Assembly: GCA_965200155.1 (NCBI GenBank)
Contig: CBDATR010000010.1
Location: 64,001 to 128,000 of the forward strand
Origin: Nitrosopumilaceae archaeon
GTDB lineage: Archaea > Thermoproteota > Nitrososphaeria > Nitrososphaerales > Nitrosopumilaceae
Reading direction: 5' to 3'
DNA: 64,000 nucleotides
Positions 18,498-35,809 of this stretch are shown in pieces. Each line of letters opens with the position of its first letter. Position 1 is the first letter of the stretch. The position numbers and the translations under genes are program-made. The notes beneath the pieces are model-generated. The model was given only the letters and a program-made list of their open reading frames with translations. It was not told the origin of the DNA and made no database searches.

Positions 18498-18814
18498 ATT
18501 AGTATTTGTTTAGCATCACCATTGAATAATGTTTTGATTCAGTAGACCTTATGCGCATGATTGACAGTAGCAGCACATGTTGCTTCAAACTAGGGTGTAT
18601 TTTATGGCACACAATCAGTCAAGCATGAACAATGTTAATGGCACCTGCCAGCACTAACGTATGCCGTGATTGCAAATGTCGTGTAGTGGGGTGACCGGAT
18701 CTTGATGACGTATATCATGAGTGAGCTAAATGGTTACCACAAAACCCATTAATTTAGTGGATTTTCTGATAAGTAATATTTGAATTATAATAACACGGAA
18801 ATTATGGACAGATA

Positions 18815-18906
18815 GTATGAGTTCACCTGTGTCTAAATTTACGCATAACTGATCGCGACAGTTAATGTGATTTGTGCATAAGATTCCGGAAGACGTGAAC
18901 TCATAC
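18815..18906 (-). mobile_element. MITE-A copy 3 (92 bp), no TSD
   Basis: Perfect TIRs; flanks GACAGATA / AATTTCTT differ, implying adjacent deletion or recombination. Confidence 0.9.
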
Positions 18907-18936: not shown

Positions 18937-19177
18937 CTAATAATTTGGTATGTGATTTCGTATTTCTTCTATGGTGCGTGACGTATATGCTTCCAATACT
19001 CTCACACGTTCCTTGTAATGTGCAAGATCTTTCTTGGTAGACGCAAGATCACGGTGTGATAAATCAATAATATAGCCACGCCCTCTTGTAATGTGCAAGA
19101 TCTTTCTTGGTAGACGCAAGGGTATCCTGAAGTTTATTTTCCAGTTCCAATTCCTTATAGGACCGGCGTCTTCTCAT
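18937..19177 (-). pseudogene. Coiled-coil ORF remnant next to a GTATGAGTTTACGTG end (probable N-terminus of the MITE-A partner transposase), disrupted by a 73-bp duplication-insertion
   Basis: Removing 19048-19120 restores MRRRRSYKELELENKLQDTLASTKKDLAHYKERVRVLEAYTSRTIEEIRNHIPNY; TIR at 19243-19266. Confidence 0.55.
19012..19120. repeat. Exact 36-bp direct repeat flanking a unique 37-bp insert (CRISPR-unit geometry)
   Basis: CTTGTAATGTGCAAGATCTTTCTTGGTAGACGCAAG at 19012-19047 and 19085-19120. Confidence 0.9.
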
Positions 19178-31032: not shown

Positions 31033-32338
31033 CATCACCCCTCCGGGAGATAAGCTTCTCGCCTGCCTTCATGACAAAGGGTGACATAAATGCGGTTATA
31101 ATAGCTATCACGCCGATCATGGGGAATAGTAGCGTGCTTACCGCCCCAATCTCCACACCTGCCTTCACTATCACAATGGAGAACTCGCCCCTGGGGGCGG
31201 CCAGGGCAGTAGACGTCCGGATTGAATCATTCCGCTTCTGCCTGAATAGTATACTCCCAGTCATGTTACCACCAAACTTGATCACCATGGCAACAACCAC
31301 AAGTATCAGTGCAATCCAGATAAAGTCACCCAGGTGGGTTATATCCATCAGGGCGCCGGTAGAGATGAAGAATATTGCAACAAACATGTCCTTTACTGGA
31401 CGGGTGAGTATCTTTGATATCTCCGCGGACTTGGAGTCGGCCACCAAAACCCCTGCAAGAAAGGCGCCAATGGCGACAGACAGACCGCCAGCGCTGGCCA
31501 GCAGGGAGTACCCAAAGCACAGCCCCAACACGGTCAGCAATAGTATCTCCCGGTTCTGAATGCTGGCAACCCGGTCTATAAGACGTGGAATAGTTCGGAG
31601 ACCGATGGTAAAGGTTCCCGCGATAAGCCCCACACCCACAATAAGTACTACGGCCAGACTCTCTACGGAGATGGTGTCGGCCAGTGCCACTGACTGGAGC
31701 CCGGATATCAGTATGACGGCTACTATATCTTCTACAATCAGTATACCCAGTATCATTATGGATGACTTTTTCTTCATGAGTCCGGCATCCTCCAGCAGCT
31801 TCACTATTACCGCAGTACTGGATATGGACAGCGCCGCGGCAATGAACAGGGAATCCATAAAGCTCATGCCCAAGGCAGTGGCTACATAAAATACCGCAGC
31901 CATAGTTCCAAAGAGGCCGATGGTGCCTATACCTATAGCTACGGTACCAATACTTTTAATCTTGTTATAGGGAAACTCGATGCCTATAACAAACAACAGC
32001 AGTATAACACCTATCTCGGAGAAGAGATTCAGCGCATCCGTATTTACCAGTATGCCAACCTCGCCAAGAAGTATCTGGGTGCTACTCTCCGGGAATACCC
32101 AAATCCACACCGGAGACAGTGGACCCAGAAGCATCCCTGCAAACAGGTATCCCACTATGATCGGTTGTCGTATCTTGAAGAATACAAGCGTGATTATAGC
32201 CCCCACAATCAACATAAATGCCAAGTCTGTCAAAAAGTCACGATGTGGCATCTCCGGAGTGATCTCGTTCAGTATGTTGATACCAACATCTGTCAGAGGT
32301 CCAAAAATATCACCGGCTTGTAAAAAAAACTCCTGCAA
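31025..32338 (-). CDS. Cation:proton antiporter (CPA2/Kef family)
   Basis: LLFVIGIE, SISSTAVIVKLL, ILIVEDI, GAFLAG, PRGEFS motifs; TTG start chosen about 25 nt after TTTTAAAA. Confidence 0.92.
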   Translation of the reverse strand: MQEFFLQAGDIFGPLTDVGINILNEITPEMPHRDFLTDLAFMLIVGAIITLVFFKIRQPIIVGYLFAGMLLGPLSPVWIWVFPESSTQILLGEVGILVNTDALNLFSEIGVILLLFVIGIEFPYNKIKSIGTVAIGIGTIGLFGTMAAVFYVATALGMSFMDSLFIAAALSISSTAVIVKLLEDAGLMKKKSSIMILGILIVEDIVAVILISGLQSVALADTISVESLAVVLIVGVGLIAGTFTIGLRTIPRLIDRVASIQNREILLLTVLGLCFGYSLLASAGGLSVAIGAFLAGVLVADSKSAEISKILTRPVKDMFVAIFFISTGALMDITHLGDFIWIALILVVVAMVIKFGGNMTGSILFRQKRNDSIRTSTALAAPRGEFSIVIVKAGVEIGAVSTLLFPMIGVIAIITAFMSPFVMKAGEKLISRRGDDD

Positions 32339-34801: not shown

Positions 34802-35042
34802 GTAACCGTTTAGGTCGAGTTAAAGATCAACACCTAGACGATAAATTCATGGCCATATGTAAGATAGAAAAAGCAAGATCGGACATGTTAGCGGTGTGTT
34901 TTGAACAGTTGTCCAGGGGTGACCTAAACGGTTGTATGAGTTCACCTGTGTCTAAATTTACGCACAACTGATCGCGACAGTTAAAGAACCGGTTCTTTTG
35001 TGCATAAGATTCCGGAAGACGTGAACTCATACAAACGGTTAC
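34802..35042 (-). mobile_element. MITE-B copy 1 carrying MITE-A in its TIR
   Basis: TIR GTAACCGTTTAGGTC / GACCTAAACGGTTAC; interior is the reverse complement of copies at 61442 and 62656. Confidence 0.88.
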
Positions 35043-35125
35043 CCTTGGCATGATCCACGTGTCCTCATATGGCTGCACCTGGGTGATGGTGTCCAGGGGT
35101 GACCTAAACGGTTACCCTTGGCATG
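34910..35125. repeat. 36-bp direct repeat flanking a unique 37-bp insert; first copy split by MITE-A
   Basis: TGTCCAGGGGTGACCTAAACGGTTACCCTTGGCATG at 35090-35125 and at 34910-34933 plus 35041-35052; insert 35053-35089. Confidence 0.88.
34934..35032 (-). mobile_element. MITE-A copy 7 (99-bp variant)
   Basis: Perfect TIRs; TSD AAACGGTT; internal palindrome AAAGAACCGGTTCTTT. Confidence 0.93.
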
Positions 35126-35145
35126 GCAAAAAAGTATATTGACCT

Positions 35146-35328
35146 ATGCACGACCCATTTTTGTTGGGTTGTTTTTGCGGTTGCGCCAAATATGAGAAGA
35201 ATGAAAACGGATTTCGATTGGCATGTGTAACATGTGGTCATGGACCGCAGAATCATGAGGAGGAGTTTCGTATGTCTGCTAGAAAAAACGAATCCGCGAG
35301 CCAAAAGCGCGACGCGGATTTTGGATGA
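35146..35328 (+). CDS. Possible small Cys/His-rich Zn-binding protein
   Basis: CFCGC....CVTCGH...H pattern in a 60-aa ORF. Confidence 0.4.
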   Translation: MHDPFLLGCFCGCAKYEKNENGFRLACVTCGHGPQNHEEEFRMSARKNESASQKRDADFG

Positions 35329-35528
35329 CAATGTGTTAACCCATATTCTTCAGAAACTTCAAGCATACGGCTTTTTAGAGATCAGAATGCGGGTTCTGTA
35401 TACATTACAGTGAGCTCCGTACTCAAGATCGTCATCATCACATCAGCGAGATATTAACATCATTGCTCACCAAGGTGATTTTATTGTTGTATTTGACCGT
35501 TACACACAGGGTTAGTTGGCGCGTGTTT

Positions 35529-35605
35529 ATGCAAGTTCACATGTGCCTAATTTCGTGCACGACGGAGTGTTATCGTACAAGATTTGAAGGAACGGGCACT
35601 CATAC
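35529..35605 (-). mobile_element. Ancient degenerate MITE-A relative
   Basis: ATGCAAGTTCACATGTGCCTAATTT...ACGGGCACTCATAC; flanks GCGTGTTT / GCATGCTC differ only by transitions. Confidence 0.5.
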
Positions 35606-35809
35606 GCATGCTCCACTGTCAGAGTGGAATGAATTCCAAAGGGATGCTAGACAGAGATGAGAAAATTACAAATTCACCAGTGAAACAAAGAACGAAAATT
35701 CAACCATGCCATATCAGAATTCGTGCAAATCATACCTAAAATGAGACAGGCACGACAAACATAGCCCGCATTTAAAGATTGATAAATGGTGTTCTATTAT
35801 CCATAAAGA

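Follow-up and report, generated by a model that had tools for sequence, protein, structure and literature searches.

A 36-37-36 repeat-insert-repeat unit at a MITE end as the very probable scar of an off-target spacer integration in an ammonia-oxidizing archaeon

Here, we describe a repeat-insert-repeat unit at positions 34910-35125 of a 64,000-nucleotide stretch of archaeal DNA (the window) that is very probably the scar left when the type I-G Cas4-Cas1 and Cas2 of its host integrated a spacer off target, in a non-canonical event, the enzyme being inferred. The window corresponds to C10:64001-128000 of a 2.38-Mb assembly (G000) of a Nitrosopumilaceae archaeon, a MAG of 51 contigs that is 87.6% complete. 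The unit is a 36-bp duplication around a 37-bp insert. The former has the length of the host CRISPR repeat, the latter is the modal spacer length of the host array (101/288), and both an intact Cas1 and an intact Cas2 are encoded in the genome.

The first copy of the duplicated target is interrupted. Its first 24 nt (TGTCC..GGTT) are found at 34910-34933 and its last 12 nt (ACCCTTGGCATG) at 35041-35052. Between them lies a nested element of 99 bp at 34934-35032, MITE-A, with the inverted ends GTATGAGTTCAC and GTGAACTCATAC, which interrupts copy 1 only. It is followed at 35033-35040 by the second copy of its 8-bp target-site duplication, AAACGGTT; the first copy is formed by the last 8 nt of the left part of copy 1 (34926-34933), so that AAACGGTT flanks the element on both sides. 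The 37-bp spacer-like insert, single-copy in the assembly, occupies 35053-35089, and the second copy of the target is intact at 35090-35125, with 26 nt of the end of a second element, MITE-B, and 10 nt of unique flank. At 34802-34816 lies the left terminal inverted repeat of this MITE-B, whose right end is the integration target. The right repeat, GACCTAAACGGTTAC, is found at 35101-35115 in copy 2, and MITE-A splits it in copy 1 into 34921-34933 and 35041-35042. No strand is assigned to any of these features. Without MITE-A and one copy of the 8-bp duplication, the locus is an exact 36-bp direct repeat with a period of 73 and no mismatches; the re-scoring was preceded by in silico excision of 350 MITE-A copies with an 8-bp duplication. 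The MITE-A-like family counts 606 copies in the 2.38 Mb, mostly of 92, 99 or 101 bp, and 331 of them have an exact 8-bp flank duplication. Another example in the window is found at 18814-18905.

The order of events can be read from this structure. Elsewhere in the genome, copies of the MITE-B end lose their match to the 36-mer at positions 26-29, and position 36 is reached by the two copies of the unit alone. Therefore, what was duplicated is a MITE end together with about 10 nt of unique flank. MITE-B inserted first, the duplication with its 37-bp insert followed, and MITE-A came last. Since MITE-A thus inserted later than some spacer-type integrations, it must have been active recently.

A local rearrangement would be the simplest alternative, that is, a tandem duplication or a second truncated MITE-B in which the 37-mer is MITE-derived or local DNA. 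In its favor, the 36-mer starts inside MITE-B, a family with 189 end-like copies, and the genome is rich in repeats (94 of 400 random 36-mers are multi-copy). However, the layout is A-B-A followed by unrelated flank and not A-B-A-B, hence the 37-mer is not repeated as it would be in a tandem duplication. The 37-mer has no other copy in the assembly, the longest other match being 12 nt; it corresponds to no MITE, and as a single-copy sequence it is not a multi-copy element with defined ends as a transposable element would be. The 10 nt of unique flank within the repeat are absent from all other MITE-B copies, and 64 other units of the same lengths would be left unexplained. We consider this alternative all but excluded. 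An initial annotation, made from sequence alone, had claimed that an exact 36-mer occurs twice around a 37-mer once MITE-A and one target-site duplication are removed, and this held in the sequence and in the re-scored locus. Its further claims also held: the duplicated unit is the MITE-B end with 10 bp of flank and neither a CRISPR repeat nor a normal target-site duplication, and MITE-B, integration and MITE-A followed each other in this order. Its caveat that the 37-mer might be a MITE-B variant or local DNA did not materialize.

A second concern is an assembly artifact, as the genome is an 87.6%-complete MAG in 51 contigs. Logan contigs from runs X1, X3 and X4, which stem from two studies, cover 35014-35700 with 0-1 differences, and the left junction at 34882-34945 is bridged by short Logan contigs. 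Thus, three DNA-type runs agree across the insert and copy 2, although one of them may be the source sample of the window. Against an artifact also speak the later MITE-A, which sits in one copy with its own 8-bp duplication, and the occurrence of the same kind of unit in two single-contig genomes of relatives (G057 and G067, see below). An artifact is therefore as good as ruled out. No joint that deletes the 73-bp unit was seen among the aligned Logan contigs; these are contigs, and rare empty alleles are hence not addressed. Contigs from an RNA library (X6) likewise cover 35014-35700, which is no proof of transcription. The runs that carry the locus are labeled as sponge metagenomes. In the runs aligned to the locus, MITE-A has a summed contig depth more than 1000x that of its flanks.

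The host is equipped for spacer acquisition. Its SSU rRNA scores 1437.6 bits with the archaeal model compared to 1093 with the bacterial one, and together with an archaeal AmoA in the genome this identifies an ammonia-oxidizing archaeon. The only Cas1 match in the genome (C9:69442-70278) lies within an intact 549-aa Cas4-Cas1 fusion ORF (PF01867, 3.4e-91; PF01930, 9.9e-19), followed by an intact 91-aa Cas2 beside the array. The array itself (C9:71011-92087) is located directly downstream of cas2 and contains 36-nt repeats, 289 in number, with an identical sequence in 287 (ATTTCC...ATTGAAGG). Among its 288 spacers, 101 are 37 nt long, 85 are 36 nt, 63 are 38 nt, 16 are 35 nt and 15 are 39 nt. 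Beyond the array, on the opposite strand, are genes for a Cas3-extension protein, Cas3g, Csb2 and Csb1/Cas7g, all of which match type I-G models. The usual type I-G gene order places the large subunit Cas8g/Csx17 upstream of csb1. Directly upstream of csb1 we found an IS5-family transposase (C9:98716-100325; L019 6716-8325). Csx17/Cas8g had no match anywhere in the assembly, but the control genomes gave none either and its absence is thus not shown. Type I-G interference may be disabled in this host. Cas6 (PF01881) had no match in the genome, and RAMP (PF03787) only a broken match below threshold. Genes for a DUF1156 methylase-like protein and a DUF499 protein associated with anti-phage functions adjoin the type I-G locus (C9:100753-105803; L019 8753-13803), with DUF499 split into two ORFs, and fragments of two further enzymes, a HaeIII-type restriction enzyme and a D12 methylase, are found upstream of cas1. 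Many small contigs (C2-C4, C6, C14-C18, C26-C29 and others) have a G+C content of 35-41%, against 45-51% in the large contigs. They hold almost no units, and they might represent another replicon or organism.

The unit is not alone. We scanned the genome outside the array for direct-repeat segments at every distance from 40 to 200. Pairs with a repeat length of 35-40 numbered 3, 29, 18, 8 and 6 at periods 71-75, respectively, 64 in total, while no other period between 40 and 200 had more than 4. Within this peak, the repeat lengths cluster at 36 (21 units) and 37 (31 units). By these counts of period and length, the geometry of the 36-37-36 layout seen at 34910-35125 after removal of MITE-A is far beyond chance. 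With slightly wider limits 66 units are obtained, a few of them marginal (C29:837, for example, has 3 mismatches), and excision of MITE-A adds two more, including the unit described here, to give about 68. The repeats of the 66 units fall into 52 unrelated target classes. Both repeat copies are identical in 48 of the 66, and the similarity of the insert to the following segment is only 0.06-0.40 across the catalogue, which argues against tandem duplication. One sister unit with 36/37/36 geometry lies in the same window, at 19012-19120 (no strand assigned), inside an IS66-family transposase gene.

The distribution of the units is not even. For the longest ORF spanning the restored site, the median length is 300 nt for the units compared to 837 nt for random positions; the units are thus depleted from long ORFs. 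Purifying selection against insertions would produce such a pattern. Five units are found within the 10 kb upstream of the array, where 0.29 would be expected. Two of these five make up an off-target mini-array with two inserts, C9:70400-70587, that lies precisely over the cas1 stop and the cas2 start. Its 37-bp target is triplicated, and both ORFs are intact and about 150 nt apart. The off-target ruler also differs slightly from that of the array. The modal period is 72 off target and 73 in the array, with 36/66 units against 100/288 array intervals at periods 72 or 75 (p=0.003), and a maximal repeat of 37 is found in 31 units compared to 21 predicted by chance extension of 36. Possibly, the off-target ruler measures 36-37 bp with slightly shorter inserts; neither length shift is explained. 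Reading-frame selection was considered as the cause of the excess at period 72 and rejected, as the in-frame share is equal in long ORFs (9/17) and in other contexts (27/49).

Direct before-and-after evidence comes from the sister target in the IS66-family transposase gene (PF03050, 1.4e-34). The 36-bp target of this gene occurs 89 times at 66 loci. By reading of the listing, 36 of these loci are plain empty sites with identical flanks and 15 have 2-4 repeats. Six different inserts occupy the same exact 36-bp frame. Hence, the IS66 sites demonstrate duplicative insertion, a fixed ruler and a sequence preference. Two of the six inserts recur in several IS copies with repeat copies that have diverged by up to 3 nt, and therefore filled elements must have transposed afterwards. 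Some IS66 copies contain proto-arrays of 3-4 repeats (C24:500845-501097 and C31:2830-3009), and in one of them the same repeat-insert unit is tandemly duplicated. For the locus at 34910-35125 itself, no empty site could be obtained from 20 relatives, where identity was only 67-83% (about 70%) and restricted to coding stretches.

How are the targets chosen? Expectation-maximization was used to assign orientation and frame over the 52 targets. The total motif information was 7.74 bits, against 5.67 +/- 0.23 bits in 12 control sets of random windows treated in the same way. The signal is at one end. From the cut inward, T is found at position 3 in 31/52 and G, never C, at position 4 in 37/52, while position 5 is C (29/52) or A (16/52) and never G. 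In the flank, A is found at -3 in 24/52. The opposite end of the target has only a weak bias. Site choice is thus loose, and immediately inside one of the cuts NNTG(C/A) is weakly preferred (the NNTGC motif). The target at 34910-35125 fits the motif, since its right end ..GGCATG reads CATGCC inward, that is NNTGC on the reverse strand. Read inward, the canonical repeat has NNTTC at either end (ATTTC and CCTTC), and similarity alone thus cannot tell which of them the motif mimics; accordingly, orientation by similarity to the canonical repeat remained undecided (543 vs 546 matches of 1872). The A at -3 agrees with the canonical leader (AGT|ATTTC), and for another type I-G enzyme, integration has been described as more site-specific on the leader side than on the spacer side (PMC10504553). 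The motif end is probably the one used like a leader-repeat junction, but the correspondence is ambiguous, and the A at -3 and the side of TTN at the insert sources (see below) point to it only weakly.

It had been claimed that the targets are palindromic, and as a general rule this failed. The 52 targets fold no better than random 36-mers, with a mean DNA MFE of -2.09 compared to -2.04 (p=0.53), and the centered dyad pairs are 4.44 and 4.48, respectively. The hairpin of the target at 34910-35125 (-8.5) stems from the MITE-B end. Targets lie in repeated DNA in 19/52 cases compared to 94/400 random 36-mers (p=0.06), and the bias towards mobile elements is thus modest. MITE-B ends are overlapped by 3 targets where 0.12 would be expected, in a post hoc count, and the register differs each time. 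These loci are window 34802-35115, C34:221692 and C24:104887. There is a resemblance between the MITE-B end ACCTAAACGGTT and the CRISPR repeat core, GCCTAACGGTT; whether this reflects recognition, DNA structure or chance cannot be distinguished.

For about half of the units the origin of the insert can be traced. A near-full-length match elsewhere in the genome was found for 34 of the 66 inserts. In six cases the match is another copy of the same repeated element, and in 28 it is an independent locus at which identity stops at the insert ends. Because identity ends so sharply at the insert boundaries, the distant locus must be the source. None of the 288 array spacers has a comparable host match. 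One donor lies in the window itself, at positions 31303-31339, with which the off-target insert at C34:225642 is identical over its full length (37/37); the window thus contains one donor locus and two recipient loci. A direct tie to the array is provided by unit C25:4760-4868, whose insert at C25:4760 overlaps array spacer 58 (C9:75210) by 26 nt, on the opposite strand and with an 11-nt offset. Both must therefore have been captured from one DNA stretch that is absent from the assembly, and this shared source links off-target inserts to the capture machinery of the array. For the 37-mer at 35053-35089, no source was found in the 87.6%-complete assembly, and there was no exact match in viral_contigs. 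A consistent PAM was not found at the 28 host source loci, where TT at -3,-2 is present on 9 of 56 flank sides. TTN is on the strong-motif side of the host sources in 8 cases and on the other in 1 (p=0.02), with only 3 vs 1 among the confidently oriented units; this asymmetry may be real but is no more than a hint. A megablast search of a 20-kb stretch of the main array against GenBank phages gave no match, and the canonical PAM of the host system is thus not known.

If the adaptation machinery is responsible, its presence should matter in relatives. A search for related loci with Cas4-Cas1 returned only relatives of at most 51% identity from other phyla, and among 60 other genomes sampled from the family, 6 have full-length Cas4-Cas1 homologs of 56-59% identity. 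Five 400-kb samples (2.0 Mb) were taken from three of these Cas4-Cas1 genomes, G057, G067 and G031, and clean units, which occur at the period of each genome's own array, were counted by reading, with rows in protein-coding or low-complexity tandem repeats dropped. G057 had 8 clean units out of 22 rows beside its array and 8 out of 12 far from it, G067 about 13 out of 17 beside its arrays and about 22 out of 24 far from them, and G031 had 1 out of 3 beside its array. All five samples were thus positive; three of them adjoin CRISPR-cas loci, and the far samples cover G057 and G067 only. The off-target peak period of G067 is 71, equal to the mode of its own array (71; 146/390 intervals). With 70% G+C this genome is prone to chance matches, and its counts are the least certain. 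Of the three relative inserts tested, a second genomic match was found for 1/2 from G057 and 0/1 from G067. Units of 36-37-36 geometry were absent from 400 kb each of G010 and G044, two genomes without a Cas4-Cas1 match. Hence, one ruler applies repeatedly at sequences that are unrelated, and the units track the adaptation genes (3 relatives with and 0/2 without a match).

These data bear on the possibility that an integrase other than Cas1-Cas2, such as an unrecognized transposase or a casposase-like enzyme, makes the 36-bp staggered cuts. There is no biochemistry behind the assignment to Cas1-Cas2, most host-derived inserts lack a clear PAM, and the genome is full of active mobile elements. 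However, the single Cas1-family match in the genome is the array-linked Cas4-Cas1, and the lengths of repeat and insert equal those of the array. The off-target peak of G067 follows its own array, an array spacer and one off-target insert go back to a common source, and no units were found in the 400 kb from each of the two relatives without a Cas4-Cas1 match. We therefore regard another integrase as very unlikely.

It might also be argued that the units are functional, dispersed mini-CRISPR loci, transcribed and processed as single-spacer memory or regulatory units. Some units have indeed grown to 3-4 repeats, and contigs from an RNA library cover 35014-35700, although this is not evidence of transcription. 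However, the repeats differ from unit to unit and are unrelated to the repeat expected as the substrate of type I-G Csb2 (Cas5-6). The 36-mer at 34910-35125 has an ungapped identity of only 11/36 and 15/36 to the host CRISPR repeat and thus does not qualify as the repeat of a functional array. No leader is apparent, about half of the inserts would target the host itself, and the units are depleted from long ORFs, as is expected for damage under purifying selection. Such a function is very unlikely, and the unit at 34910-35125 is most likely inert, its lack of function being inferred. The initial annotation had left the choice between dispersed single-spacer memory units and element scarring. 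The former finds no support, given repeats unlike the CRISPR repeat and inserts that are about half host-derived; the latter is the better description. Its central idea, a ruler-type integrase (Cas1-Cas2) that writes spacer-sized fragments into non-CRISPR targets, is supported, and two checks came out in its favor: the lengths of host repeat (36 nt) and modal spacer (37 nt) equal those of the unit, and 64-68 further units exist genome-wide.

We therefore favor off-target integration by the host Cas4-Cas1 and Cas2 and envision the following course of events. The complex would attack ordinary DNA, in this case the right end of MITE-B with 10 bp of flank, by two strand transfers that are staggered by about 36 bp. 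A 37-bp prespacer would be joined between the transfers, and gap repair would duplicate the 36-bp target. This would be the same reaction as the addition of repeat and spacer at the leader end of a CRISPR array, with a spacing set by the ruler of the integrase and not by the target sequence. MITE-A would have transposed later into one copy of the duplication. Observed are the geometry of the unit, its genome-wide excess and its agreement with the array, as well as the sources of inserts in sibling units and the empty and filled sites of a sibling target. The enzyme and the order of strand transfers remain inferred. Since neither a source of the 37-mer nor an empty site is available for 34910-35125, the assignment of this unit rests on its geometry and its siblings.

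In the literature accessible to us, off-target integration has been shown in an engineered E. coli strain and in vitro, with only circumstantial evidence for natural cases. A dense and natural footprint across a lineage, with inserts from the host and dissemination by IS elements, was not found in the literature searched, which excluded supplements that may contain natural cases. The mechanism is already known from laboratory work, whereas its natural scale has, as far as this search shows, not been described. The catalogue provides dozens of dated, sequence-resolved off-target events in wild genomes. It is a natural data set on target choice by a type I-G integrase, with its 36-37-bp ruler, NNTGC border motif and array proximity. 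It also makes the prespacer pool visible before selection, with about half of the off-target inserts host-derived compared to 0/288 array spacers, so that the cost of autoimmunity can be seen in a single genome. The examples of proto-arrays and of spacers that ride on insertion sequences belong here as well. CRISPR adaptation itself can evidently cause insertional mutation, the cas operon included. In annotation pipelines, these units would otherwise be passed over or labeled as orphan mini-CRISPRs.

A bolder reading goes further, and we lean towards it only slightly. In ammonia-oxidizing archaea with a type I-G system, Cas4/1-Cas2 may act as a chronic, genome-wide integrase of low specificity that inserts fragments of about 36 nt, roughly half of them host-derived, at a present-day density of about one per 20-45 kb. 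Such scars would then be a largely unselected fossil record of capture and integration, some of which grow to proto-arrays of 3-4 repeats and are copied by IS66. If true, the process would offer new CRISPR arrays a natural origin and expose these genomes to a mutational force that has so far gone uncounted.

Several known systems share features with the units described here. As with the target-site duplication of transposons and MITEs, a direct repeat of target DNA flanks the insert. However, 36 bp are duplicated instead of 2-15 bp, and the inserts, which have the size of spacers, differ from one another and lack terminal repeats. In vitro, the Cas1-Cas2 of Pyrococcus furiosus integrates at paired non-CRISPR sites that are one repeat length apart and have a few conserved border bases (PMC6698737). 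Repeat-length pairing and positionally conserved bases near the borders are common to both systems, while the ruler in the plasmid assay follows a 30-bp repeat and the ruler here measures 36-37 bp, with NNTG(C/A) at one end and products that are fixed in genomes. Within type I-G, GsCas4/1 of Geobacter sulfurreducens acquires mainly 36-bp spacers with strong selection for a TTN PAM (PMC6547450). The fused Cas4-Cas1 and spacers mainly of 36 bp connect our system to type I-G adaptation in this organism and to the array of Methanosarcina barkeri (PMC10504553), and the higher specificity of the leader side over the spacer side in type I-G studies fits the one conserved end and the 36-37 slop seen here (PMC10504553). 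In contrast to those studies, which addressed array integration with strong TTN selection, the host-derived off-target inserts have only a weak TT enrichment (9/56 flank sides). The closest precedent is neo-CRISPR, the off-target integration by overproduced E. coli type I-E Cas1-Cas2 described by Nivala, Shipman and Church (2018, Nat Microbiol; as cited in 10.1101/148544; PMC7054753). According to the citing text, the same work offered only 'circumstantial evidence' in two other species, and such events can seed new arrays (10.1101/148544; PMC7054753). Both there and here a spacer-sized fragment is found outside the array and the target stretch is duplicated. Unlike neo-CRISPR, the events described here are natural ones in a type I-G archaeon, they number about 68 per 2.4 Mb and recur in relatives, and some of the units have been carried on by IS66 transposition.
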